A stretch of DNA of 31,147 nt from a virus. The notes under the pieces were generated by a model that made no database searches, was not told where the DNA came from, and saw only the letters and a list, made by a program, of their open reading frames with translations. The stretch is taken from UHGV virus genome UHGV-0038737; one strand, given 5' to 3'. Each line of letters opens with the position of its first letter. Position 1 is the stretch's first letter. Shown in pieces: positions 1 to 25,912 of the stretch. Made by a program: the position numbers and the translations under genes.

Positions 1-78
1 TGGGCCGATGCTGACCCGTACGTAGCGGCAGGAGTCTATGAACACGTTTCAGTGAAACCATTTAAGAAAGTGTTCTAA
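1..78 (+). CDS. 3' end of an unidentified ORF that begins upstream of the window
   Basis: Frame 1 is open from position 1 to TAA at 76-78 (...WADADPYVAAGVYEHVSVKPFKKVF*), followed by a hairpin at 143-177. Too short to assign a product. Confidence 0.25.
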   Translation, partial: WADADPYVAAGVYEHVSVKPFKKVF

Positions 79-142
79 TTTATTAGAAATTTGCACTTAA
101 ATCAAAAAGTTACGGACAATTCAACCACCAATCAATAAATTA

Positions 143-190
143 AAGGGCACATTAAAGTACACAATATTTGTGCCCTTCTCTGTTTCTTTC
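143..190. terminator. Candidate bidirectional intrinsic terminator between convergent genes
   Basis: Perfect 9-bp inverted repeat AAGGGCACA (143-151) / TGTGCCCTT (169-177), followed on the plus strand by the pyrimidine-rich run CTCTGTTTCTTTCCC and on the minus strand by TAATTTATTGATT. Lies just downstream of the invertase stop (197). Confidence 0.4.
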
Positions 191-196
191 CCGTTA

Positions 197-745
197 TCAG
201 CTAGCTGGAAACTTTTTATACAGAGTTGAGAGCCCTACTCCATACGTTTTTGATACGCTTTGTCGTGATTCACCGGTTGCCATCCGCTCCCCCATTTCCC
301 GCCATTGCTCATCCGTGAACTTAGGCCTGCGACCACCAACTCGCCCTTTTGCCCTGGCTACGGCCAGCCCTGCTAAGGTACGTTCGCTATTAAGATCAGA
401 TTCATATTGTGCTGCGGAAAGGATGTTACGAAAGTTATAGCGGCCGCTGGCTGTTTTGAGATCCACGCCATCGGTAATACTGCGGAAGTTGATACCCTTT
501 TCCTGTAACTGCTGGAACATCAACAGCGCATGCAGAACGTTGCGGCCTATCCTGTCCAGCTTCCAGACCACCAGTTCATCCCCCGGCTGCATAGTGGCGA
601 TCAGCCGTTTTAGAACCGGCCGATTCGATTTCCTCCCGCTGGCATGCTCTTCAAAAATTTTCTCACAACCCGCTGACTTGAGCGCCGTTAGTTGCAATTC
701 AGTGTCCTGGTGGTTTGTTGATACTCGGGCATAACCGTAAATCAT
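197..745 (-). CDS. Serine recombinase, DNA invertase of the Hin/Gin/Cin/Pin family
   Basis: N-terminus MIYGYARVSTNHQDTELQ with catalytic-serine context, resolvase-type core and C-terminal HTH (GESRQSVSKTYGVGLSTLYKKF). ATG at 745 preceded by AGGAG; the six-frame ORF extends to 790 but the internal Met aligns with the family N-terminus. Confidence 0.9.
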   Translation of the reverse strand: MIYGYARVSTNHQDTELQLTALKSAGCEKIFEEHASGRKSNRPVLKRLIATMQPGDELVVWKLDRIGRNVLHALLMFQQLQEKGINFRSITDGVDLKTASGRYNFRNILSAAQYESDLNSERTLAGLAVARAKGRVGGRRPKFTDEQWREMGERMATGESRQSVSKTYGVGLSTLYKKFPAS

Positions 746-749
746 GGGA

Positions 750-776
750 TTTCTCCTGTTATGAAAACAGGAGAAA
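750..776 (-). promoter_or_regulatory. Stem-loop sequestering the invertase Shine-Dalgarno
   Basis: Perfect 11-bp inverted repeat TTTCTCCTGTT / AACAGGAGAAA with a 5-nt loop. On the minus-strand mRNA the AGGAG of the invertase RBS sits in the 3' arm, 4 nt before the ATG at 745. Confidence 0.4.
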
Positions 777-804
777 CGGCGAAGCATCACCAGATTTTTG
801 ATGG

Positions 805-1104
805 TTATAAAAAAGGTTGGTTTGGGAGGGATGGGGCAAACCTATAGCGCATCGCAAGATAACTCCTCAGAACCCTCCCCATGTTACGCAGGATCCAGTA
901 CCGGTTCTCGCTTTCGTTTGTCGTCTTATCGGCGAAGTCCGGCTGGTATCGCTCGATCCATGTATTTGCATCCGCCTGACTGAAATGCCAGTTCCTCTCC
1001 TGCAGTTCAGCGATGAACTTGTCTGTATGCAGACAGAGATAGCCCTTCGGGTTTTGCTGTATGGCCGCAATAAAAGCAGCACGAATATCCGGTTGACGAG
1101 GCAT
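805..1104 (-). CDS. Hypothetical 99-aa protein, divergent from the dinI-like gene and sharing its LexA box
   Basis: ORF MPRQPDIRAAFIAAIQQNPKGYLCLHTDKFIAELQERNWHF... with ATG at 1104 and GAGGG SD about 8 nt upstream. The LexA box lies 26 nt upstream. No family recognised. Confidence 0.5.
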   Translation of the reverse strand: MPRQPDIRAAFIAAIQQNPKGYLCLHTDKFIAELQERNWHFSQADANTWIERYQPDFADKTTNESENRYWILRNMGRVLRSYLAMRYRFAPSLPNQPFL

Positions 1105-1125
1105 AAATGCACCCTCACTCGCTCA

Positions 1126-1154
1126 TTGACTGTATGTATATACAGTAGTATTTT
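1126..1154. promoter_or_regulatory. LexA (SOS) box within a divergent promoter region
   Basis: CTGTATGTATATACAG at 1130-1145 fits the CTGT-N8-ACAG consensus, with flanks gaCTGT...ACAGta. For the plus-strand dinI-like gene it overlaps a candidate -35 TTGACT (1126-1131) and -10 TATTTT (1149-1154). Confidence 0.75.
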
Positions 1155-1203
1155 TATGAAAACAGATCAAGCACAGGCAGTTTTCACTTATAAGAGGATC
1201 GGT

Positions 1204-1443
1204 ATGTTTGTTGAACTGGTTTATGACAAGCGAAATGTTGAGGGGCTCGAAGGGGCCAGGGAGATCATTCTGGCCGAACTGACGAAGCGGGTGCACCAGA
1301 TTTTCCCTGGTGCCGAAGTGAAGGTAAAGCCGATGCAGGCGAACGCGCTAAACAGCAACTGCACGAAAACAGAGAAAGAACGGCTTAATCGTATGCTTGA
1401 AGAGATGTTTGAAGAATCTGACATGTGGCTGGTTGCTGATTAA
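1204..1443 (+). CDS. dinI: DinI-family DNA-damage-inducible protein
   Basis: MFVELVYDKRNVEGLEGAREIILAELTKRVHQIFPGAEVKVKPMQANALN...EEMFEESDMWLVAD matches the DinI pattern as recalled. RBS AAGAGGA; LexA box 59 nt upstream. Only the last 80 codons of the long six-frame ORF 817-1443 are taken as real. Confidence 0.85.
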   Translation: MFVELVYDKRNVEGLEGAREIILAELTKRVHQIFPGAEVKVKPMQANALNSNCTKTEKERLNRMLEEMFEESDMWLVAD

Positions 1444-1459
1444 TTACATATTCACATCA

Positions 1460-1485
1460 CCGGGCAGTCATCCTTTTCTGCCCGG
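1460..1485. terminator. Hairpin between convergent dinI-like and tfa genes (weak terminator candidate)
   Basis: Inverted repeat CCGGGCAG (1460-1467) / CTGCCCGG (1478-1485) with a 10-nt loop. No strong U-tract on either strand. Confidence 0.3.
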
Positions 1486-1500
1486 TTAATGAAAATCACA

Positions 1501-1914
1501 TCACGCTGCGGGTTTTTCAGGCCACTGAATATCTGGCACGGTGATATCCAGCGCGTTCAGCGCATCACTGTAACTCAACCAGGCATGCAGGGCTGCGGTT
1601 TCTGAATCACTCAGTTTCATGCCCACCAGGATTTTTGTCTGCCATACAGAAATAGTCGGAGCGATTTCTGACAGCAACAGCCGCCGTTGATTTTCTGCTA
1701 TCGCCAGCGGGTCCAGTTCTGGCAGTTGTTCAATACGCGGTCCTTTCTCGTCAAATATGCCCGCGAATCCATCGGGAGGATTAAAAAACGCCAGATAGTC
1801 AGCCTCGCTCATCTCTTGCAAGTCCGCAGGTAGTGAGCCAGCCGCTTCATACGCAGACAGCATACCGTTATCGAGGTAAAATCCCTGCGTGCTGATGCTG
1901 TAAAAATATTTCAT
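1501..1914 (-). CDS. tfa: Tail fibre assembly protein (Tfa chaperone)
   Basis: MKYFYSISTQGFYLDNGMLSAYEAAGSLPADLQEMSEADYLAFFNPP... is typical of lambdoid/Mu-type Tfa. Start ATG 1 nt after the tail fibre stop. Confidence 0.85.
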   Translation of the reverse strand: MKYFYSISTQGFYLDNGMLSAYEAAGSLPADLQEMSEADYLAFFNPPDGFAGIFDEKGPRIEQLPELDPLAIAENQRRLLLSEIAPTISVWQTKILVGMKLSDSETAALHAWLSYSDALNALDITVPDIQWPEKPAA

Positions 1915-1915
1915 A

Positions 1916-2797
1916 TCAATACCCCATCACTCTTATATGAAAAAAAGGGACCCAGCCTGTCTGAGGAGTTTTAACGCTGACGGTTAAATATGTTGTTAAT
2001 AGCCCACTGCCATTATCTTTATCTCTGCATGTTTTAACATCAGCATTGTATCCGGGGGTTTGATTTCCAAATCTGTCGCCTGAAATGGACGCAACGGCAG
2101 TAATAATGCCGTTAGGTAATGCGACGGGGAGCGGCACTTTATAGTAGTGCGTATAATACGTAATACCTCCCACTGTCTGAGGGTTGTATGCTCCTACTGC
2201 GATGACGCCACCTATGAGGAAATCCATTTGATAAATATCGCCAATTTTTATCACGCTGGAGTTTGTTCCTGACCTGACATAGGTGATACCCAGATTGGAC
2301 AGCGCGGCGTCTCTGGTTGTCGCCCCGGTCCCTCCCTGGTCAATACTCAATGCTGTACTTAGCCCTTTCAGCTCTGTGATATCGCTATTTGCCCCTTTCC
2401 GGGCGAGACCACCGATGGCAGGAATGCTGAGGCTGGTGCCGTTGATTGTCACAGTGACCAGTTGGTTCGCTGAGGTACTGGCGAACGTTTCCCACGCACC
2501 GATATTCTCGTCATACTCATTGATGAGCTGAGACATGGCCTGTGCCAGTCCATCAACCGAGATAATGTCTGATACCAGAATGCCGTACTTCTGGCCGCTC
2601 AGCGCCGGGGAAGCAGCTGGAGTAACCGTCATTGACGTGGCGCTGTTCACGGATGAAATCTGGAACAGCTGCACCGGGTTAGACATCACGATAATTGTCT
2701 GCCCAGCGCGAACCTGGCTGGCCGGTGCCGTCCAGTTTGTGCCCGTCCCGGTGGCGGTATTTCCATTAATGGCGATGGTGCCGGTGTTATAAAGCAT
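1916..2797 (-). CDS. Side tail fibre protein
   Basis: Contains the conserved fibre motif LSIDQGGTGATTRDAALSNLG and Gly/Thr/Ser-rich beta-type composition. ATG at 2797 with GGAG RBS (the ORF track starts at TTG 2812). A Tfa gene follows directly. Confidence 0.8.
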   Translation of the reverse strand: MLYNTGTIAINGNTATGTGTNWTAPASQVRAGQTIIVMSNPVQLFQISSVNSATSMTVTPAASPALSGQKYGILVSDIISVDGLAQAMSQLINEYDENIGAWETFASTSANQLVTVTINGTSLSIPAIGGLARKGANSDITELKGLSTALSIDQGGTGATTRDAALSNLGITYVRSGTNSSVIKIGDIYQMDFLIGGVIAVGAYNPQTVGGITYYTHYYKVPLPVALPNGIITAVASISGDRFGNQTPGYNADVKTCRDKDNGSGLLTTYLTVSVKTPQTGWVPFFHIRVMGY

Positions 2798-2812
2798 ATT
2801 TTCTCCAGGCAA

Positions 2813-2837
2813 TAAAAAAACCCCGCCGGAGCGAGGT
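2813..2837 (-). terminator. Rho-independent terminator downstream of the lipoprotein gene
   Basis: Minus-strand RNA CCUCGC-UCCG-GCGGGG (one G-U pair) followed by UUUUUUU, 20 nt after the lipoprotein stop. Confidence 0.55.
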
Positions 2838-2857
2838 TTATGTTTAAGCGTAGTGGG

Positions 2858-3091
2858 TTATTTGCAGGTTGTTTCGGTAAATGTATTCGCACTTACCCAG
2901 CGCCAGCTGAAAGGATATCCAGCCCGGTACTGCGTCTGGTTGTTTTGTTTACGCACACCGTAAATCTGAACCGTAGTTTCCTGACCGCCAACGATTGCAG
3001 TGCCGCTGCAAACTGGTTCCTGTTTCTCAATTACGCCAGCGCATCCTGTAAGCATGACAGCGCCTGCCATGCAGATAATCAGTTTTCTCAT
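2858..3091 (-). CDS. Small lipoprotein moron (77 aa), possibly Cor-like
   Basis: Signal peptide MRKLIICMAGAVMLTGC with lipobox LTG-C. Own terminator downstream and a separate AT-rich, repeat-rich upstream region. Embedded between tail genes. Confidence 0.6.
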   Translation of the reverse strand: MRKLIICMAGAVMLTGCAGVIEKQEPVCSGTAIVGGQETTVQIYGVRKQNNQTQYRAGYPFSWRWVSANTFTETTCK

Positions 3092-3202
3092 TTTGATAGT
3101 ATCCAGAGGAATTCAGTATCTTAGACGATACCAATACAATTCTGGTGGGTATAATTGATTGGATAGATCAATATTATGTTATTGATCGCTAAAAACGATC
3201 AA

Positions 3203-3877
3203 TCAATCATAGGCCGCTGTATTTATGGCGGTTAATGAAATGCCAGTATTCGTTCCCCCTCCAGGTGAACCTGCCCCAGTGGAGGTCCCCCCTGCGTTTA
3301 TCCTCGTATTGGCCCCGTCAAACCTGCATGAAGAATAAGCATTTATCGTGTAGATAGTCGGAGGCTGGGTTGAATTATTCACAATGATGGTCTGACCCAA
3401 CTGAGCAGGTGCAACGGCCCATGACCCGCTCAGCGTCTGGTCAATATTTATCCCGCCGTTTGCACCAGGCGTGCCAACCGTCTGCAGGTCTGATAGCACA
3501 CGGGACTCATTAGTTAACACAAGCTTTCCGCTCGCATCCCATATTGCCAAACCCCATTTCGGTAATATCTGCGGGAATATGGCAAAAACGTACGCCGTTA
3601 AAGTGAAACTTTGGTTGTAGGGATTAACACCAGCAACATACACATTACCGCCGTTCCTGTAAGACATAACCGGAGTGGGCTGTGCTGTATTGGTGGTTTT
3701 GATAAAAACCATCACTGGGTAATCAGCGTTTAAAGCGATATTTTGAGCAACCTGCTGAGAACTGCCATTCGCGGATGAATTGAAGGTATACTTCCCGTAA
3801 AGACAGAAAGGCGTTGATTGTGGCGTTACAAAGGGATTCCCGTTATCCATTAATATCATCGCGCCAAATTCGGCCAT
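3203..3877 (-). CDS. Hypothetical tail-region protein (224 aa)
   Basis: ORF translationally coupled to the upstream gene (TAATG overlap at 3877). Gly/Asn/Thr-rich beta-type composition, downstream of J. Function unknown. Confidence 0.6.
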   Translation of the reverse strand: MAEFGAMILMDNGNPFVTPQSTPFCLYGKYTFNSSANGSSQQVAQNIALNADYPVMVFIKTTNTAQPTPVMSYRNGGNVYVAGVNPYNQSFTLTAYVFAIFPQILPKWGLAIWDASGKLVLTNESRVLSDLQTVGTPGANGGINIDQTLSGSWAVAPAQLGQTIIVNNSTQPPTIYTINAYSSCRFDGANTRINAGGTSTGAGSPGGGTNTGISLTAINTAAYD

Positions 3878-8994: not shown

Positions 8995-9750
8995 TCAGCT
9001 CCTGATAAGAGATGTACCGGGGAAACCGCCAAACGGCAGCTCGTTGCTGTCTCCGTGCCGGAGCTTGCAGGCCGTCAGCGTGCCGTTGCAGACATCCAGC
9101 GATGGATCGTCAACCGGATTATTGTTTTTGTCGAAATAGCGCGTTCCGGCATAGTCGCAGCCGTCGCCGGTCCGGTACTTGTTCCGGATGCACCAGCTGC
9201 ATAACGAATGCAGCTGCCGCGTGGGTATCATCTGGCCCTGTAAATCCATCGGACTGGAAAGCGTAAATTCAACAGATTCATCCGTCTCGGTGCTTCTGGC
9301 ATCGATATAAAAGACCTTCAGCTTTTCCTGTGACGGGTCTGCAGTGGGATTGCCCTGCGGAAAATTTCTGGCGTCCAGATACTGTGCCAGCGTGTCGTGG
9401 ATACTCACTTTCGCCTGCAGCAGATCGTCATACGCCAGACAGAGCGCTGAGATCGAGCTGTCCAGGTTCGCCACACTCAGTTTTGGCTGTGGACTGGTAC
9501 CGTCCGTAGTCGCTTCAATACCCTCAACCTGACACGGCCAGGCTTTATACTCCTCCCCCTGCCACCAGATGGACTTCGCCGGAAGTTTATTCTCATCCCC
9601 GCCTGCAGCCTCAATCTCTTCCGGGGTATGCGCGATATTATGTGCGTGGAAGCGGAGTACATCTGACATACCGAACGCTGTGCCATCGACAGAAAAAAGC
9701 CGGACTTCATTGCCCGGCTCGAGTTTTTGATAATCAGCATTAAGACTCAT
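8995..9750 (-). CDS. L: Minor tail protein L
   Basis: 251 aa, gpL-like, with a C-terminal Cys cluster. ATGA overlap with the M stop. Confidence 0.9.
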   Translation of the reverse strand: MSLNADYQKLEPGNEVRLFSVDGTAFGMSDVLRFHAHNIAHTPEEIEAAGGDENKLPAKSIWWQGEEYKAWPCQVEGIEATTDGTSPQPKLSVANLDSSISALCLAYDDLLQAKVSIHDTLAQYLDARNFPQGNPTADPSQEKLKVFYIDARSTETDESVEFTLSSPMDLQGQMIPTRQLHSLCSWCIRNKYRTGDGCDYAGTRYFDKNNNPVDDPSLDVCNGTLTACKLRHGDSNELPFGGFPGTSLIRS

Positions 9751-10094
9751 GGTGCAAATGCCTGTTCAAACGTTGCGGTTACGGTTATCACTTTTACGTT
9801 TTTAACCACCTTTTTGAGCGTGTCAGCCTCGACACGCCACAGCGCGGTATCGCCGAAAGGCGGTGTGAAAATAAACGACTTCACTTTATGCCGCCGAAGG
9901 AAAGCGTGAATTTCATTCGCTGTAGTCGGATCCCCTGAAAAGGAATATTCATAGGTACGAATCTCATCATTCAGGCCGGAGCCGCTCACCTGTGCGTACC
10001 CGTCGCCGAACTGAACCTTCCTGACTGTGTCTTTGCTTCCCTCGGTGGGCTGGCTGGAAACCTTAATGCCCCAGGGGAATGTTTCTATCGTCAT
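9747..10094 (-). CDS. M: Minor tail protein M
   Basis: 115 aa, gpM-like, placed between tape measure and L. Confidence 0.9.
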   Translation of the reverse strand: MTIETFPWGIKVSSQPTEGSKDTVRKVQFGDGYAQVSGSGLNDEIRTYEYSFSGDPTTANEIHAFLRRHKVKSFIFTPPFGDTALWRVEADTLKKVVKNVKVITVTATFEQAFAP

Positions 10095-10099
10095 AACTG

Positions 10100-12616
10100 T
10101 TACCTGCGATTGGTCGCATTCCAGATAAGCCCACCGGGCTGGATTGCCCTGGCGATACCCTCGTTGACAGATTTGTTAATCACCTGCTGATACGCCTTAC
10201 CCAGCCTGTCTCCGTCGTTTTGCTGCTGTGCGTTACCGGAAGCATTCTCGACCGTCACCGGCGCGTACACGCTCACCCCGAAAGGTGCTGCAGCGGGACC
10301 TGTACCACCGCCCCCGACATACCCACCCGTGGCATACCCTTTCATCATCCGGTAAAGATTGCCGACGCCGATCCGGCTGGTAGCCTCTTTGGTGAAAACA
10401 AATTCACCACGGTGAACGACACCTGCAGGTTCATATTTCCCGCCTGAACCGGTATAACCGCCACCTGCAAATCCCAGCGCGGTTGTCGCTGAATCCACCA
10501 GGCCTACCATCGCCTGTTTCAGCAGGATCTGTGTCAGCATGGAGAGCGTGGAGCGGGTGAAGTCAGCCCAGTCAGCCTTACCGCGCGTCAGCATGTCAGC
10601 CATATTTTGCCCGATTCCATCAAACGTACTGGTAGCAGCCGACTTCATCTGGCCATAAGCATCTGAAGCAGAATCAACATAATCTGCCCATGCGGATTTG
10701 GCCCCGGATTGCCAGTCGTCCCGCAGCTTATCCTGCTCGGCGTAATACGCCTGCAGCGCCTGCAACTCATTCTGATAACCAGCGTCGTTCTCCGAACCGC
10801 CACCATTTTTCCACCCCTGAAGAAGCTGGGCCTCCTCGTTGCGGCGTTGTGCTGCACGACTGCTCATACCAGCACTTTCCGCCAGGGCCCTGGTTTTCTC
10901 GCCGATCTGCGTGACGTATTTTTGGGACGTATCCTGCAGGCGGTTAAGCCGCTCCTGCGCCACTATCTGATCGCCAAGCTTCGCGTTCAGCTCTGCACGG
11001 GAAAGCACCTCGCTTTTACTGGCCAGCAGGGATTTTTCCTCAGCAGAAAGCGTCCGGGTCTTCGCGGCCTCTTCCAGAACTGTAAACCGGGACTGTTGAC
11101 GCCACAGCTCCTGACGCTGCTGACTGATGGTGTCATTTATCCCCTTATGCTCCTGCAGGGTGCGCAACTGTGCCTGCAGCTCCAGCGTCTGGGCGCTGGC
11201 CGTATCGGTTGCACGGGCACCTGCGGGGGTTCTGATTGCCGGGGTCTTCTTCGGCTTTTTAAGGGTGTCTTCGTACTCTTTTTTCGCGGCAGCCAGGTTG
11301 ATGTTGTAGTCAGCCTGGAGGATTCGCCCCTCTTTCAGCGCCTTGTTGAGCTCGCTCTGCCTGGCCGTGTATTTCTCCAGTGCCGTCTGCGTTTTGGCAT
11401 AGTTTGCCTGAGCCTGCGCAGCATACTTCTGGCGATCCGATTCCGCAGCCGCTTCGCGCGAAGCATTCTCTTCATTCGCCCTGGCAATTCCCGCCTGCTG
11501 CTGAGCCATGTCCAGCGCCAGCCTGGCCGTTTCGCGATCATTCCAGAATCGGGCGCGGGCCTCATCATTGACATATCGGTCACCTTTACGCAGGTTCCAG
11601 ATTTCATCGGCTTTTTTGAACGCGGCTTCGGCTTTTGCCACCATCTCCTGCGCGGTGTCAGGTCGGCCAATATCGAGGGCTGCATCCCACATCGACTTGA
11701 AGGCGCGCCTCAGGGAGTCCGCTGAAGACTCTATCGTCCCCATATTGTCGCGGATGGCTTTGGTCTGATCGTTGAATCCGGCTGTAGCCGCCTCGTTAGC
11801 CGCCTGCAGTGCGCCAGCCTCATCACCGGCACGCTGCAGCTGCGCCACATGGGCAATCTGTTCTGCGGTAACGTTATGGAACTGCTGGGCCATCGCGATC
11901 AGGCCCGATGTCGGGTCAGTTGCGAGCTTGCCGTAGGCTGCAGCGACTTTCTCCACCGGCACGCCGGAGGCATCAGTAAACCGCGCCACCGCCTGGCTCA
12001 TTTCATCAAAGCGCGAGCCAGTACGCACACCTGCATTGATAAGCTCGGTCAGGGCTTCACTGGTCTGGTTGAACGTTAGCCCCGCTGCCTGTCCGTTCCG
12101 CGCCAGTGCCAGCATGCGGTCAGCTGTCAGTCCGGCTGTGTTCCCCGACAGTACCAGCGTTTTGTTGAAATCAGACAGAGTGGAAGAGCCATGGTACCAG
12201 GCATAGAACAACGCGCCCGTTGCAACGGACAATGCACCAATGCCGACCATCAACGGGGAAATCGTCCCCAGTAACGCCCGGAATGTCGGAATGATCCCGC
12301 CAAAGGAGTCCTTAACCTGACCGCCCTGCTGAAGCAGAATCAGCCAGGGGTTCTGCCCACCCGCCAGCTGCGTGGCCACGTCAGTAAACTGCGCCGGGAG
12401 CATACGCATCGCTGCGTTATACTGACCCACTGAAATACCGGCCTTACGCGCGGCGTTCTCCTGGCGGCTGAAGGACTGCTGGATACGTAACGCTTCATCG
12501 TTTGCCGTATTGCCGGTCTGTTTTAATTCTTTTTTGACGTAGCTGAGCTGCTCGTTGAATTTTGTCGAGTTAACGTCAAGGTTAACGACCAGATCACCGA
12601 CTGCCGTCTGGGCCAT
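10100..12616 (-). CDS. H: Tail tape measure protein H
   Basis: 838 aa, Ala/Gln-rich coiled-coil composition with a Gly-rich C-terminus. Strong AGGAGG RBS. Confidence 0.9.
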   Translation of the reverse strand: MAQTAVGDLVVNLDVNSTKFNEQLSYVKKELKQTGNTANDEALRIQQSFSRQENAARKAGISVGQYNAAMRMLPAQFTDVATQLAGGQNPWLILLQQGGQVKDSFGGIIPTFRALLGTISPLMVGIGALSVATGALFYAWYHGSSTLSDFNKTLVLSGNTAGLTADRMLALARNGQAAGLTFNQTSEALTELINAGVRTGSRFDEMSQAVARFTDASGVPVEKVAAAYGKLATDPTSGLIAMAQQFHNVTAEQIAHVAQLQRAGDEAGALQAANEAATAGFNDQTKAIRDNMGTIESSADSLRRAFKSMWDAALDIGRPDTAQEMVAKAEAAFKKADEIWNLRKGDRYVNDEARARFWNDRETARLALDMAQQQAGIARANEENASREAAAESDRQKYAAQAQANYAKTQTALEKYTARQSELNKALKEGRILQADYNINLAAAKKEYEDTLKKPKKTPAIRTPAGARATDTASAQTLELQAQLRTLQEHKGINDTISQQRQELWRQQSRFTVLEEAAKTRTLSAEEKSLLASKSEVLSRAELNAKLGDQIVAQERLNRLQDTSQKYVTQIGEKTRALAESAGMSSRAAQRRNEEAQLLQGWKNGGGSENDAGYQNELQALQAYYAEQDKLRDDWQSGAKSAWADYVDSASDAYGQMKSAATSTFDGIGQNMADMLTRGKADWADFTRSTLSMLTQILLKQAMVGLVDSATTALGFAGGGYTGSGGKYEPAGVVHRGEFVFTKEATSRIGVGNLYRMMKGYATGGYVGGGGTGPAAAPFGVSVYAPVTVENASGNAQQQNDGDRLGKAYQQVINKSVNEGIARAIQPGGLIWNATNRR

Positions 12617-12914
12617 AGCGCACGCCTCCTGAAATACCTGCAGCCTTCGCCATCAGCGTATCGTCATCCGGATCATCGATGTCGATGGCTTCCGGTGCAG
12701 AGGAAAGAATGCTGAAACTGTCCGGGGTTAACTCCGGATCGGCAAAAAACAGGGTTGAGATGGTGTAGAGCAAGCCGGAGAAATGTGCGTCCAGCTGCGC
12801 ATCATGAAAGTAATTGTCCTGGTAGAAGATTTTCCAGTCGCCGTATTCCGTTGAGGACATGCCAGCAAGCATGGCACGCCAGTCCGGGCGACCGAACTCA
12901 CGCGCCAGTTTCAT
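12594..12914 (-). CDS. T: Tail assembly chaperone T segment (G-T fusion by -1 frameshift)
   Basis: The -1 frame relative to G is open from 12959 and overlaps the G 3' end. Product carries an acidic C-terminus, as in lambda gpT. Coordinates are those of the ATG-delimited ORF; the fusion would join within 12941-12947. Confidence 0.7.
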   Translation of the reverse strand: MKLAREFGRPDWRAMLAGMSSTEYGDWKIFYQDNYFHDAQLDAHFSGLLYTISTLFFADPELTPDSFSILSSAPEAIDIDDPDDDTLMAKAAGISGGVRYGPDGSR

Positions 12915-12922
12915 GGCAAACT

Positions 12923-13345
12923 TCAGCTCACTGGCGAGGGCTTTTCCGCAGTAACAGGTTCAGCGGGTTCATTACGTTCTTCACCGGGCTCAGCCTGGTC
13001 ATCAGTGACCGGCGCAATCATCCCGGACAGGAGTTTCACCTTATATTCGGCTTCGGCAACAAGTTCGGTCGGCCATGTCTGCATGACCTCATCCTGAATC
13101 TGCTCCACTTCCGCCGCCGCGTTTTCTCCCTGCGATCCTTTAAGCGCGTGGCCATGCCAGAGTGACATTGCCACCAGATATGCTCCACTCTTCACGGTAA
13201 GGGTAATGGCAGCCTGAAAATCACCAGCTTCAACCGCCTCAAGTTGTTTCAGGTATTCGAGGTATTCAATACGCTGCAGCGCCGACAGCTGGAACAATGT
13301 GACGCTGCTGCCGTTACTTTCAAGCAGCTCGCTCTTTAGAAACAT
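12923..13345 (-). CDS. G: Tail assembly chaperone G
   Basis: 140 aa between V and T. GGAG RBS. Ends ...PVTAEKPSPVS*. Confidence 0.8.
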   Translation of the reverse strand: MFLKSELLESNGSSVTLFQLSALQRIEYLEYLKQLEAVEAGDFQAAITLTVKSGAYLVAMSLWHGHALKGSQGENAAAEVEQIQDEVMQTWPTELVAEAEYKVKLLSGMIAPVTDDQAEPGEERNEPAEPVTAEKPSPVS

Positions 13346-13361
13346 AATTACTCCGGGGGAA

Positions 13362-13377
13362 CGGGGCTTTCGCCCCG
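13362..13377 (-). promoter_or_regulatory. GNRA-tetraloop hairpin between V and G
   Basis: Minus-strand RNA CGGGGC-GAAA-GCCCCG in the 36-nt V-G spacer, just upstream of the G SD. Confidence 0.45.
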
Positions 13378-13381
13378 GTTA

Positions 13382-14119
13382 TCAGGAAACAGTGACTTTG
13401 CAGATCGCCACAAAGTTACCGTCATTGCTCATGACGATGATTTCGACGGTGCCCGCCGCCACGCCGGTGACAGTCAGGGTATTGCCGTTAACGGTGACCG
13501 TTGCTTTTGAAGGATCAGAGCTGGCTACGCGGAAGGATTTATCTGACGCACTGGCCGGCAGGACAGAAACCACCAGTTGCGTTGTGGCTGCGACCGCGAC
13601 AGCTGCAGTAGATTTATCCAGACTGATCCCCGTGACAGCAATCGGCGCGGTACCGCCGTCCTCTGCCAGCGACGGTTTGCCGTTGTTTGTGATTTTGGCC
13701 GTGCGGGTCATGACCTCTTTGGAAGTAATGGTTTTACCGAGGCTGCTCACCCAGCCATTAAACACATCGACAACACCATTTGGGTATTTGATTTTATATC
13801 CCCTCACGGTGCCCTCATCGAACCAGTTCACCAGGTCCTGCTGACCGGAATCTCCCGGCATCCACGCGAGCGTCAGATTGGTTTCACCGGCTGATTTCTG
13901 CCCCTGCATCGTTGATGTCCAGTCAGCATTTTCATCATCGATGTAGGTGTCATCTTCAGATTCAGCCGTCAGTTCACCGGGCTGCAGGTCTTTAATCTTT
14001 GCCAGGCGCAGCCAGTCAACGTCTGAAAGCGGGTTGGCATAGGGGTCACCGGTTCCGGTGTAAACCCATAGGGTGGTACCAGCACCTTTTGTTGGTGCCA
14101 GCGGGTTTGGTGTGGCCAT
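13382..14119 (-). CDS. V: Major tail protein V with C-terminal Ig-like domain
   Basis: [45 protein letters not shown]... is close to lambda gpV as recalled. Confidence 0.92.
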
Positions 14120-15920: not shown

Positions 15921-16946
15921 TTATGCCAGCTTGACTGAAACGAACGCGTCCGGATCTGGCAGCAGCATCAGCGGAGCTGACTGAATCATGGTGAACTCGC
16001 GAGCCGGGTCGCCCGTTTGCACCCAGTTTTTCGGATAGCGCGTTGAAGCATTAATGCCTTCGCGCTGTGCATCTGCATCCAGAATGCAGCCATAGGTACG
16101 CAGACCGCGCGCCTGGGTATTTCCCAGCACCATTGTCAGATCCGGCAGGTAGTTCTTTTTGACGTCATCCTCGATGTACTGACCGGAGTACACAACGATG
16201 GCAACGTCGCCATACATCCCCTTATATGAGACGGCCATTCCCAGGTCTTTTACGGCGGTTTCGAGCTCAGAGCTTGAACCGCGACGCGTATCCAGCTTTT
16301 CCTTCACCGCGTCAAAGGAGCGGAACAGCGCCCAGCCCTTTGGATCGAAGACGATAATGTTGACCACACCGCTGGCGTTAAGCGCGTACGCTTCAATATC
16401 ATCGGTCGGGTCGTACGTTTTTTTGTCGCGAGAAGACCAGGCAGCTGCACCCGCCTGGGTGATGTTGTTACCGGCACTGCGTCCCATATCAACTTCAACC
16501 GGCTCAAACGCTTCCCCGGTCATGGTGTATTTACCACTGAGGACTGCAGCAACGGCCTGCTTTTCTTCTACCTGCGCAATTGCAAGCTCTTCATCTTTCA
16601 TGTTCTGAAGAATGATGCGTCGGCGGCGATAGGCAGGGTCGGCCAGATTCTGTGGATCTTCATCAGGCAGGCGGCGGAGGGTCATCAGCGGATTCACTTC
16701 GTGTTTTGGCTTCACATACCCCGGCGTAAATTCCGACGTGCTGCCACCACGGGAACGAATCACTTTCCCGGAGACAATCGGCGATACGTACAGCGCCATA
16801 TTGACCATGCCCGGAATTTGCGACAGGTAGACTTTTTCTGTACTGAAGGGATAAGTTTCGCGAAAGAAGATACGCAGGAAGAGCGGATCGAACTTGAATT
16901 TCTTCTCATTGACCGCCAACAGTTGGGCCGTTGTGTAAATTGACAT
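15921..16946 (-). CDS. E: Major capsid protein E
   Basis: MSIYTTAQLLAVNEKKFKFDPLFLRIFFRETYPFSTEKVYLSQIPGMVNMALYVSPIVSG... is near-identical to lambda gpE as recalled. ATG at 16946. Confidence 0.95.
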   Translation of the reverse strand: MSIYTTAQLLAVNEKKFKFDPLFLRIFFRETYPFSTEKVYLSQIPGMVNMALYVSPIVSGKVIRSRGGSTSEFTPGYVKPKHEVNPLMTLRRLPDEDPQNLADPAYRRRRIILQNMKDEELAIAQVEEKQAVAAVLSGKYTMTGEAFEPVEVDMGRSAGNNITQAGAAAWSSRDKKTYDPTDDIEAYALNASGVVNIIVFDPKGWALFRSFDAVKEKLDTRRGSSSELETAVKDLGMAVSYKGMYGDVAIVVYSGQYIEDDVKKNYLPDLTMVLGNTQARGLRTYGCILDADAQREGINASTRYPKNWVQTGDPAREFTMIQSAPLMLLPDPDAFVSVKLA

Positions 16947-17355: not shown

Positions 17356-17763
17356 TTAAACAGGCGTATTTAACAAATCGTCACCCGCTTCGGCAGAAGC
17401 GCTACCTGCCGTTATGGTGCCGGGTGCGGTTTCCATCAGACGATCCAGCGCGGTATCCGTACGCGCCTGAGCACTCAGAGGAGCCGCGGCAAGGATGCGC
17501 TGGGCACTTTCCACCGTCATCCCGGGCGTTTCCGCCAGCGCGCGCGCCTGTGATTCACGCCCTTTCGCCTCTTCACAGTTCAGGATCCCCATAATGCGAC
17601 CGTTTTCGGCTGCGACCGCCGCTGCCACCTGGCTGCTGATATCAACAGTTGCGCCCGCTGCAGGGTCAGTAACGACCGCAGCAGGCACGTCAACGGTGGT
17701 CACGGTCTGGTCAGCAGATGCTGCTGGTTGAGTGGTATCTGCGGATGCAGTAGTACCTTTCAT
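17356..17763 (-). CDS. Nu3: Scaffolding protein Nu3, in-frame internal start within C
   Basis: In-frame ATG at 17763 (MKGTTASAD...) preceded by GAGGAGGAA, giving about 135 aa co-terminal with C, as in lambda C/Nu3. Confidence 0.65.
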   Translation of the reverse strand: MKGTTASADTTQPAASADQTVTTVDVPAAVVTDPAAGATVDISSQVAAAVAAENGRIMGILNCEEAKGRESQARALAETPGMTVESAQRILAAAPLSAQARTDTALDRLMETAPGTITAGSASAEAGDDLLNTPV

Positions 17764-18693
17764 GCTTCCTCCTCGGGAAATCATCGTTCGTTTGTTAATT
17801 GCATCGCGCATAACGTTCAGCGCATCCATGTTGTTGACCAGCTGCTCCGCCAGGCCGTTGTCAACTGATTCCTGGCCTGAAAACACAGCTGCTTCAGTAT
17901 CAAGAACGGCCTGAACCGACATGCCGGTATAACCCGCCACCTTTTCAGCGAACATCTGCCGGGTAGCGTCGATACGCGCCTGAAAATCTGCGCGTACCTC
18001 TTTGGGTAATTTCTCGTAGGGGTTCCCGTCCACCTTGTGATCGCCGCTGTAAATCAGCGTGACCTCAACGCCGCTGGTTTTAAGGGCGGCGCCGTAATTG
18101 CTGTGGGCCATCATGACCCCGATGGATCCCGTTCTGGCCGTCTGGGTCACAAGCCGACGTGATGCCGCACTGGCAATCAGCTGGCCAGCGCTGCAGTTCA
18201 TATCGTTGGCTAACGCCCAGATGGGTTTGATATCCCGCATGCGGGCGATGATGTCCGCACAGTCAAAGGCACCCGCCACCATTCCACCTGGCGTATCCAT
18301 ATCCAGAAGAATGCCGTCTACACCCGGATCGCTGATTGCCTGCTGGAGGCGGGCGATGATGCCGTTGTACCCCGTCATCCCCGAATACGGCTGGAGTGAG
18401 CGGGTTTTACTGACCAGCGTCCCGGAAACAGGCAGCACCGCGATACCATCAGTAACCTGGTAGCTTCGCGCTGGTTTTGGGCCCATGTCCTCATCATCAC
18501 CAAAGAGAGCCAGCGGTTCAGCCATCTGCTCTGCACCTAGCGTCACGCCCGACACGGTGTCGGTCAGACGGGTGATACCTAACTGACCAGCGAGAGCACA
18601 AAAGAAAACCCGCGCATAGGCGGGTTCAAGTAAAAGCGGCTCATTGAAGGCCATACTGGCAATGTGCGGGAGATTACGCAGCTCTGGCGTCAT
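17356..18693 (-). CDS. C: Prohead protease C (S49/ClpP-like), with nested scaffold in its 3' third
   Basis: [36 protein letters not shown] matches the lambda gpC N-terminus. ATG at 18693 preceded by AGGAGG (the ORF track starts at 18708). Confidence 0.92.
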   Translation of the reverse strand: MTPELRNLPHIASMAFNEPLLLEPAYARVFFCALAGQLGITRLTDTVSGVTLGAEQMAEPLALFGDDEDMGPKPARSYQVTDGIAVLPVSGTLVSKTRSLQPYSGMTGYNGIIARLQQAISDPGVDGILLDMDTPGGMVAGAFDCADIIARMRDIKPIWALANDMNCSAGQLIASAASRRLVTQTARTGSIGVMMAHSNYGAALKTSGVEVTLIYSGDHKVDGNPYEKLPKEVRADFQARIDATRQMFAEKVAGYTGMSVQAVLDTEAAVFSGQESVDNGLAEQLVNNMDALNVMRDAINKRTMISRGGSMKGTTASADTTQPAASADQTVTTVDVPAAVVTDPAAGATVDISSQVAAAVAAENGRIMGILNCEEAKGRESQARALAETPGMTVESAQRILAAAPLSAQARTDTALDRLMETAPGTITAGSASAEAGDDLLNTPV

Positions 18694-20266
18694 CGGTCCC
18701 CTCCTCATTCGATTTTTTCAGTCCAGACTCAAAGGCCGAAGCCGCCCACGCTGGCGGTTTAAGTCCCGCTGCGCGACGCTCCATCGTTTCGCGAACCTGC
18801 TGGGCAAAGATTTCCTGATAATCTTCCCCCCGTTTGGCGCATTCCTTCTCATAGGTGCTCAGCCCAGCCTCAATGAGCATGACAGCCTCCTGCACCTCCT
18901 TCAGACCGTCAATGGCCATTCTCCCGGAGCCGATCCAGTCTGCATTTCCCCAGGCGCTTCTCGCCTCCTGAAAACTGAATCGGGCTTTAGACGGTAGTGT
19001 CACCACCCGGCGAACAATGGCCTCTTCCAGCCAGCATAAAAACATCTGACAGGCCTGGCGGGAGGCAACAAATTTGCGGCGCCCCATAAAGTACGCCCAG
19101 GACTCGTTAGCACTGGCGCGGGCGGTGGAATAACTCATCTGCGAATAGTTGCGAGAGAGTTGCTCATACGACACACCCAGCCCTGCAGCAATGTAGCGCA
19201 GCAGAGATTGTTCAAACGTCGAATAGCCGTTATCAGTATCCTGCGCTGACTGAAGATTCAGGGAGTCGCCCGGCATCAGATGCGGCACCTTCGCGCCGCC
19301 GAGACGAACCGGCGCAGCGGTATAGTACGAGGCCATCTCCCCCAGCCAGCCGGTCATCTTGCTTTGCTGCTCTTTACTGTCTGAGCCGAGAATAAAGTCC
19401 ATCGCGGTTTGCGTATCCAGCTCACTTTCAATCGTGGCGGCATACATCGCCTTGACAATCGCGCTCTGGAGCTGCGTATTCTGCAGTGTATCGAGCATTT
19501 TCATTTGCTCCATGACGCTGTAAAACACGTTAGCACCGCGTGTCTGCCCATCTTCCAGGGGTTCAAATACGTGGATAAAGGAAGGCCGCCCGCCTGGCAG
19601 CTCACGCGGGATGTAGGTCCACTTCTGCGCCATCCACCCCGGATAGCCATCTTCGCTGACGTAATATCCCAGCGCGGCGCCACTGTCATTTGTTCTGACC
19701 CCCGCCCGACAGTTTCGCGTGTCTCCGGCGTTATTGGGGTTGCTGATGCGTTTCGGGCTCACCATTTTGAACTGTGTGCGGAAAAGACGCGTGGAATCAC
19801 TGTCCCAGGTGGCCTGTGCACATAACTCACCGTTAAACGCATGCATGGATACACCTTCACGGATCATCATGGTGAATGTACGCTTACGTTCCGCATCAAT
19901 GCAGCAGCAATCATCCTCCGCAAATTCTTTCCAGGCCGCCTCAACTTCACGGGAGAACGCCCGGGCCTCTTCCTCTCCAATGCCAAGAAAACGCCAGCTG
20001 GGCCGATAACTGAGCCGGAAAAACGACCCTACAATGTGGTCCTGATGGAGCTGTACCGCGTTTGCCGCATAGCCGTTATTGCGGACCAGATCGTCAGCGC
20101 GCGCGTTACCACGGGAAAAATTAGGCAATAACGCAGCATCTGCGCTTTCACTCGGTGGATTCCAGGCGCGGAGCTGACCGCCAAAGCCACCAGCACCGCC
20201 ATGGTATCCGGCATAATCCCGCAGAGCGGTTTTACCGTCCGGTCCTAACAAAGCAGGTGTTTTCAT
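18674..20266 (-). CDS. B: Portal protein B
   Basis: 530 aa, lambda gpB-like, between W and C. Confidence 0.93.
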
Positions 20267-25183: not shown

Positions 25184-25912
25184 TCAGGCCGCCGCATAGA
25201 GCAATTTCATCTGCCCTTTTACCTGGAATGCCGACATGCAACGCGCTTCGAAATCACGATAATCAGAGCACCCATTGGCAATGCTGGTAACGGCAATGAT
25301 CTGTCGCTCAACCAATGTCAGCGCGTCAGGTTTAAGGTGCTGATGGATTTTGTCTCCCGCAGCCAGCCGTCTTTTAACCTCTGCATATACTTCTGGTGGT
25401 AATACCGGGCCATATACCCACTTGGCACTGATCATCCCAAATAGTGCGGGGCGACGACCTGGTCGATGACGGGGCAGCCCTGACATTTTGAACATCGCAG
25501 AATAAAACGGATCGCTAAACCTCTTTTCCCATGGCTGAGATTTATCCAGAAGGAAAATAGCCTTTATTCTTTCATCGTCGATATGATGAACGGAACCCTG
25601 AATGATTGCGTCAATTTGCTCATCACACCAGATCTCAAAATCTACAGAAAGCCATCGAGCAAATCTGACCGCCAGTTTTGGGTGAAGCCATGTTCCGCCG
25701 CCACGGTCTTTGCGAGCGCGGCTGGTTTTTACATATGTGATATTCCCATATCTACTCTTTAACGCCTCGATGTAACGGACAGTCTCAGGAAGCCTAAGCC
25801 ACTGAGCCGGCTCCTTGTTGAACTTGTCAGCTGCCGCAGTCGCGTCAAACCAGCCATCGTCAGAAAAACGCATGGGATGGCCTTCGAAATCAATCGGGAT
25901 GATATTGGACAT
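25184..25912 (-). CDS. KilA-N domain protein (Bro-N/KilA-N N-terminus, P63C-like C-terminus)
   Basis: MSNIIPIDFEGHPMRFSDDGWFDATAAADKFNKEPAQWLRLPETVRYIEAL is a typical KilA-N N-terminus. The ORF track extends to 25987 and the upstream Met cannot be excluded. Confidence 0.7.
   Translation of the reverse strand: MSNIIPIDFEGHPMRFSDDGWFDATAAADKFNKEPAQWLRLPETVRYIEALKSRYGNITYVKTSRARKDRGGGTWLHPKLAVRFARWLSVDFEIWCDEQIDAIIQGSVHHIDDERIKAIFLLDKSQPWEKRFSDPFYSAMFKMSGLPRHRPGRRPALFGMISAKWVYGPVLPPEVYAEVKRRLAAGDKIHQHLKPDALTLVERQIIAVTSIANGCSDYRDFEARCMSAFQVKGQMKLLYAAA

Follow-up and report, generated by a model that had tools for sequence, protein, structure and literature searches.

The window analysed here is the whole of a 31,147-nt stretch of DNA, the viral genome UHGV-0038737, in which the late genes all lie on the minus strand (Table 1). 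Gene identities were settled by Pfam and DNA comparisons. Gene G matches Pfam PF06894 (Phage_TAC_2) along its full length (E=6.5e-52), and its product shares 91% amino acid identity with N15 gp14 and 47% with lambda G. The −1 frame matches PF06223 (Phage_tail_T, E=1.7e-12), with 62% identity between the T part and lambda T. The gene order is V-G-T-H, with the start of H overlapping the end of T, so that the G-T pair has the major tail gene on one side and the tape measure gene on the other, as in lambda. These two domain matches and this position bear out the initial annotation, which had proposed a G-T programmed −1 frameshift window here.

Table 1. Position of the features discussed in the text, in coordinates of the window.
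Feature	Coordinates	Strand	Details
Gene G, tail assembly chaperone, 140 aa	12923..13345	-	Open reading frame; stop TGA 12925..12923 (included)
G / −1 (T) frame overlap, 37 nt	12923..12959	-	One base, 11 G codons and stop
Slippery heptamer G_GAA_AAG (predicted)	12941..12947	-	0 frame GC-G GAA AAG; −1 frame GGA AAA G
T part of predicted fusion, −1 frame, 115 codons and stop	12594..12941	-	Translation; Pfam PF06223
ATG-initiated reading frame within T, 106 aa	12594..12914	-	
Candidate stimulatory RNA structure	12861..12935	-	Predicted branched fold, starting 5 nt after the heptamer
Major tail tube gene V, upstream	13382..14119	-	Pfam Phage_TTP_12 and Big_2
Tape measure gene H, downstream	10100..12616	-	Pfam TMP_2 and Tape_meas_lam_C
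Serine resolvase/invertase gene	197..790	-	Pfam Resolvase and HTH_7
S49 protease (lambda C-like) gene	17356..18708		

Over G-T, the window matches a chromosomal prophage of E. coli ECCRA-119 at 100% identity, and this stretch was found in 31 of 5426 complete E. coli genomes. Among phages, mEp237 is the closest (98% DNA identity over G-T), followed by N15 (93%) and HK225 (92%), and collinearity with the head and tail genes of these three extends over approximately 23 kb of the window. Judged by these comparisons, the locus is an N15/mEp237-like lambdoid prophage of E. coli. A scan of 12400..13500 for promoters and terminators found nothing. At the left end of the window, the serine resolvase/invertase gene adjoins tail-fibre genes, which suggests an invertible host-range segment of the Gin/Cin/Pin type; no inverted repeats of at least 18 nt were found near this gene in 1..3400.

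A single credible slip site in the G-T overlap

The last upstream stop in the −1 (T) frame lies at 12962..12960, and from 12959 the frame is open as far as its stop at 12596..12594. The frame analysis thus agrees with the initial annotation, both in opening the T frame at 12959 and in overlapping it with the last 12 codons of G. The overlap (ACCTGTTACTGCGGAAAAGCCCTCGCCAGTGAGCTGA) contains no other in-phase NNA_AAG or X_XXY_YYZ motif, and GGAAAAG, previously named as the sole A-rich slip candidate, is indeed the only credible slip site within these 37 nt. The heptamer departs from the canonical X_XXY_YYZ pattern, as its first three bases are G, G and A while bases 4–6 are AAA, and it conforms to the NNA_AAG or A_AAG motif, with an A-site AAG following a codon that ends in A (GAA_AAG).

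GGAAAAG is present seven times in the window against 4.4 ± 1.8 expected, which is no enrichment, hence the raw occurrence of the heptamer carries no weight. The features that stand above chance are phase, position and conservation among relatives. In-phase copies of G_GAA_AAG were also observed at 497..503, 9322..9328, 16296..16302 and 25523..25529 (all minus strand), in the genes for the resolvase, tail protein L, the major capsid protein E homologue and a KilA-N protein, and at these four copies the −1 frame closes after 4–22 codons. Given these copies in four further genes, that for the major capsid protein among them, the bare heptamer is evidently tolerated, and its occurrence in a highly expressed capsid gene suggests that it is only weakly slippery.

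As a G-T slippery sequence GGAAAAG is already known and not new, having been annotated since the N15 genome record (AF064539), where a misc_feature “slippery sequence for -1 translational frameshift” at 10027..10033 corresponds to GGAAAAG. The same heptamer is marked in the phi80 record (FN582354), with G and T joined, and the record of phage LLS (PQ299149) lists a “minus-one programmed translational frameshift site GGAAAAG”. Among the motif classes that the PRFect study gives for tail-chaperone frameshifts is “twofour” (XXYYYYZ; PMC10885494).

T as part of a predicted fusion protein

A shift at the heptamer is predicted to give a GT fusion of 250 aa, made up of G residues 1–135 followed by ALASELKFAMKLAREFG... 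Database records of close relatives treat T differently. In the identical E. coli ECCRA-119 locus (L121, NZ_CP029242.1 2687743..2688057), PGAP/RefSeq lists T as an incomplete pseudogene fragment, and in mEp237 (L004) and HK225 (L122) T is annotated from a non-conserved ATG. G and T are left unjoined in all three records and the frameshift product is missing. The pseudogene flag of PGAP is a failure to model the shift.

Annotation from the ATG amounts to T being made alone from position 12914, without any frameshift. An ATG-initiated frame of 106 aa does exist in T and several records begin the gene there, yet this ATG is a Leu codon in 102 of 146 distinct sequences (CTG in 100 of them, ~70%, including lambda and phi80) and is preceded by no good Shine-Dalgarno sequence. 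Upstream of it, the T-frame residues E5, L6 and F8 are kept in 145–146 of the 146 distinct sequences. F8 lies beyond the G stop, so its conservation is not explained by G coding. The T domain of lambda, moreover, is known solely as part of GT (PMC5009743). Separate synthesis from this ATG is therefore highly improbable; a start codon that is not conserved, together with conserved residues upstream of it, indicates that T is translated from the heptamer onward, without a start of its own.

Conservation of the heptamer among relatives

Related loci (n = 264) were gathered from genomes, viral contigs and phage records and comprised 194 distinct G-T DNAs. GGAAAAG was present in 170 of these, at loci extending down to ~32% G identity, and the GGGAAAG of lambda proper in 20; the remaining four consisted of AAAAAAG (L102), GGCAAAG (L062) and two broken genes. 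The description of the heptamer as “non-canonical” in the initial annotation thus stands in so far as the sequence differs from lambda G_GGA_AAG and from the strict X_XXY_YYZ rule, but a heptamer found in most distinct loci is not unusual.

The same distribution bears on whether the heptamer arose by decay of the lambda site (GGGAAAG, with G to A) in a defective prophage, or is instead a run of A's at which transcriptional slippage takes place. It is one base away from the heptamer of lambda, and the PGAP flag on T in ECCRA-119 would suit a decaying gene. Against this, GGAAAAG is common to the viable phages N15, phi80, mEp237, HK225 and LLS as well as to the large majority of distinct loci, hence it is widespread and possibly ancestral rather than a product of decay. 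Four A's are far too few for RNA-polymerase slippage. Decay and transcriptional slippage can both be set aside as vanishingly improbable.

The shift windows that would give GT, when intersected across all relatives, are reduced to the heptamer ± 3 nt, i.e. 3 nt upstream and one sense codon downstream. At L081 the −1 frame opens just 3 nt before the heptamer, and at L007 the G stop falls one codon after it. From these aligned frames, the shift site is confined to the heptamer.

Entropy, computed over 99 distinct 61-nt segments, was 0.08, 0 and 0 bits at heptamer bases 1, 4 and 7, which are third-codon positions, against 1.39–1.86 bits at ten upstream third-codon positions. The codon preceding GAA varies between GCG, CCG, CTG, GTG and ACG, each ending in G, with base 1 being G in 98 of the 99 segments, while slightly further upstream all four bases occur at the end of Pro, Val and Ala codons. 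As third positions are fixed in the heptamer and vary upstream, the seven bases are selected as nucleotides and not only as codons. G-ending codons are preferred for Ala, Leu, Pro and Val in E. coli, which somewhat weakens the argument from base 1; slightly further upstream, however, codons for these amino acids are not fixed for a G ending. Base 2 is also near-invariant, and the only alternatives observed, G at base 3 in lambda and AAA at bases 1–3 in L102, restore full X_XXY_YYZ complementarity. Beyond the heptamer, base 9 is C in most relatives.

Two observations concern individual members of this dataset. L062 (IMGVR_UViG_3300048929_000058) is the single relative with G_GCA_AAG in place of G_GAA_AAG, which may reflect a hexamer site (NNA_AAG) that works, a copy that is defective or an error in assembling the metagenome. 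G-T overlaps identical to lambda (L010-L022 and L035-L040) were detected on low-coverage contigs assigned to Neobacillus, Pseudomonas, Kitasatospora, Shewanella, Paenibacillus and others. These are most likely lambda DNA contamination from sequencing controls, not real prophages of such unrelated bacteria.

Probable slippage mechanism and efficiency

Taken together, the sequence patterns make it very likely that the locus is a working programmed −1 ribosomal frameshift site of the tail chaperone pair G/GT. Most ribosomes would read GCG GAA AAG CCC ... and terminate at the TGA to release G (140 aa). A small fraction would slip back by one base with tRNA-Glu on GAA in the P site and tRNA-Lys on AAG in the A site. 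In the A site, tRNA-Lys would re-pair perfectly in moving from AAG to AAA. In the P site, tRNA-Glu (anticodon 3'-C-U-mnm5s2U-5') would move from GAA to GGA. The G-C pair at position 1 and the A-U pair at position 3 would be retained, with a G.U pair tolerated between them; the anticodon of tRNA-Glu is given as 3'-CUS-5', with S = mnm5s2U, in PMC6787027 (Supplementary Table 3). After the slip, translation would continue in the T frame as GCC CTC GCC ..., producing the GT fusion.

Measurements on related heptamers help to judge the P-site step. Among the dnaX-context values of Tsuchihashi & Brown reproduced in PMC6787027 (Supplementary Table 3), frameshifting is 81% for A_AAA_AAG, 57% for G_GGA_AAG, 22% for A_ACA_AAG, 20% for A_GAA_AAG, despite its worse P-site fit, and 5% for A_AGA_AAG. 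GAA in the P site is therefore compatible with substantial shifting, since A_GAA_AAG reaches its value even with an additional mismatch at base 1, and by analogy the G at base 1 of G_GAA_AAG would give a better P-site fit. NNA_AAG hexanucleotides and intermediates of the G_GA/G_GU type are recognised shift sites, and of the contexts that can follow AAG in E. coli, 3' CC is reported to be the most prone to shifting (PMC5009743); the context in the window is AAG-CCC. Evidence against comes from a reconstituted E. coli system without stimulators, in which AUG_GAA_AAG, a sequence containing G_GAA_AAG, yielded mainly the 0-frame product and was considered by the authors “less slippery” than G_GGA_AAG, with an unfavourable second-position mismatch (PMC6924986). 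On that evidence efficiency may be low and the contribution of the P site may be small.

The initial annotation had left the choice between P-site mispairing and a shift mainly of the Lys codon. If only tRNA-Lys slipped (an A_AAG or NNA_AAG shift), tRNA-Glu would not re-pair in the P site but would only let go of its third base. No other tetranucleotide comes close to A_AAG in E. coli, which gives 5.6% with the IS3 pseudoknot, although alone it is barely shifty without a stimulator (PMC4066793). NNA_AAG motifs work to a degree set by the P-site tRNA (PMC5009743), A_ACA_AAG and A_AUA_AAG shift at 22–29% in the dnaX context without P-site complementarity, among the values reproduced in PMC6787027, and the G_GCA_AAG of L062 is a motif of this kind. 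Such a slip has no need of base 1, yet base 1 is G in all but one segment and after five different codons, while neighbouring wobble positions are saturated; nor does it account for the near-invariance of base 2 or for variants that return to full X_XXY_YYZ. Slippage of tRNA-Lys alone is accordingly rather unlikely, and re-pairing in the P site is the better supported of the two, base 1 being the near-invariant wobble of a variable codon. Because the first G persists whichever of the five codons precedes GAA, slippage of both tRNAs is favoured over slippage of tRNA-Lys alone and is probably the main route.

Tail assembly in lambda needs the G-T fusion, which is produced at a low fixed ratio, something known for lambda only; its G:GT ratio is ~30:1 (PMC5009743), so that the level of shifting needed is low. 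At the locus described here efficiency is probably low as well, at or below the ~4% of lambda, and it may be raised by the favourable CC on the 3' side and by a stable RNA fold downstream.

A candidate downstream RNA structure

The predicted fold downstream of the heptamer is branched, with a closing helix of 10 bp (GCCAGUGAGC/GCUUGCUGGC, 12935..12926 with 12870..12861) that encloses two hairpins. The 91 nt at 12950-12860 have a minimum free energy of −45.8 kcal/mol and z=−4.37 relative to dinucleotide shuffles (z about −4.4 to −4.9), ranking the fold 2nd of 896 by z in sliding 88-nt windows of the minus strand. When the T peptide was recoded synonymously, 99.5% of the recodings were less stable than this fold. 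A local hairpin directly after the site (CGCCAGU...ACUGGCG) was considered and rejected, as it was no better than shuffles (z=−0.84) and the longer branched fold was preferred.

The most structured 88-nt window of the scanned strand lies elsewhere, at 17620..17707 (minus strand, z=−5.7; 131-nt fold of −64 kcal/mol, z=−4.2), inside the S49 protease gene. This fold may mark the start of a nested scaffold (Nu3-like) gene or be an effect of Ala/Val-rich repeats.

Independent predictions gave a similar architecture for lambda (z=−2.2), phi80 (z=−3.2) and L080 (z=−1.75). The closing helix keeps at least 8 of its 10 pairs in the N15, phi80 and lambda clades, and pair 16/84 shows a compensatory swap between A-U and G-C (AU 36, GC 8), in the lambda clade and separately in L033. 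The helix is lost, however, in Fels-1-like and L129-like clades, and the slid-partner control for helix conservation was not clean. Relative to synonymous recodings z ranged from −2.8 to −0.2, being weak in other clades (−1.7 to −0.2) and −2.5 in Fels-1, but there the fold differs. Synonymous-site entropy along T showed no clear trough over the predicted structure, with only a few fixed GCC Ala codons at paired positions, hence strong structural selection is unsupported. Rfam contained no family at the site, the sole match being a chance snoRNA (E=0.48), and nothing similar to the SD-like stimulator of dnaX (GGAGG) was found within 20 nt upstream. According to the standard review, tailed-phage shifts seem to go without stimulators, and lambda-type G-T shifting has no known stimulator.

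We tentatively suggest that in the majority of lambda-like tails of enterobacteria the weak G_GAA_AAG heptamer may rely on a branched RNA structure that is conserved (12935..12861, minus strand) and lies within the first 27 T codons, although on the predictions above this dependence is doubtful.

Relation to known frameshift systems

The programmed −1 frameshift of lambda G/GT at G_GGA_AAG is reportedly the subject of work by Levin, Hendrix & Casjens (1993) and Xu, Hendrix & Duda (2004, 2013). The locus in the window resembles it in having homologous G and T genes in the same order, a shift six codons before the G stop, an A-site Lys moving from AAG to AAA, and the downstream T sequence ELxF..KLAREx GRPDWRAML. 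It differs from lambda in that base 3 is A, not G, so that the P site would hold Glu GAA (mnm5s2U34) instead of Gly GGA with a middle G.U pair required, and in its 3' context, which is CCC here and UGU in lambda. No essential difference was observed from N15 genes 14/15, phi80 gpG-T and LLS genes 11/12, all of which have an identical GGAAAAG in the same phase.

The dnaX site A_AAA_AAG (Tsuchihashi & Brown 1992; Bock et al. 2019) shares the A-site step of tRNA-Lys from AAG to AAA. The dnaX mutant A_GAA_AAG, with GAA in the P site, still shifts at 20% in the presence of stimulators. In dnaX an upstream SD-like stimulator and a downstream hairpin are proven and frameshifting is ~80%, whereas the present site lacks an SD-like element and its fold is predicted. 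GAA_AAG also fits the NNA_AAG motifs of IS3 type, for which, as Licznar et al. (2003) are cited in PMC5009743, the A-site Lys slip dominates. Unlike those motifs, the preceding base is conserved as G, which would allow partial re-pairing in the P site and make the site an intermediate between hexamer and heptamer. The site is best described, from these likenesses, as an ordinary G/GT tail-chaperone frameshift, with GGAAAAG being the commonest form in the gene family.

Implications for lambda-type tails

The basic picture of G/GT frameshifting is unchanged by these results. For annotation, automated pipelines miss the G-T shift, and a rule accepting G_GAA_AAG in gpG-family genes would mend many prophage annotations. 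If the downstream structure does support shifting, the strength of the heptamer and the strength of the structure would co-evolve to hold the G:GT ratio, and host mnm5s2U34 thiolation would act on that ratio twice over, through each of the two slipping tRNAs (Glu and Lys) that bear this modification. Most phages of the lambda-type G-T family use a heptamer which biochemists took as a “less slippery” control. Phages with GGAAAAG are a natural test of the tolerance for a middle-position G.U pair in the P site, and they could show if context or RNA structure offsets a weak heptamer.
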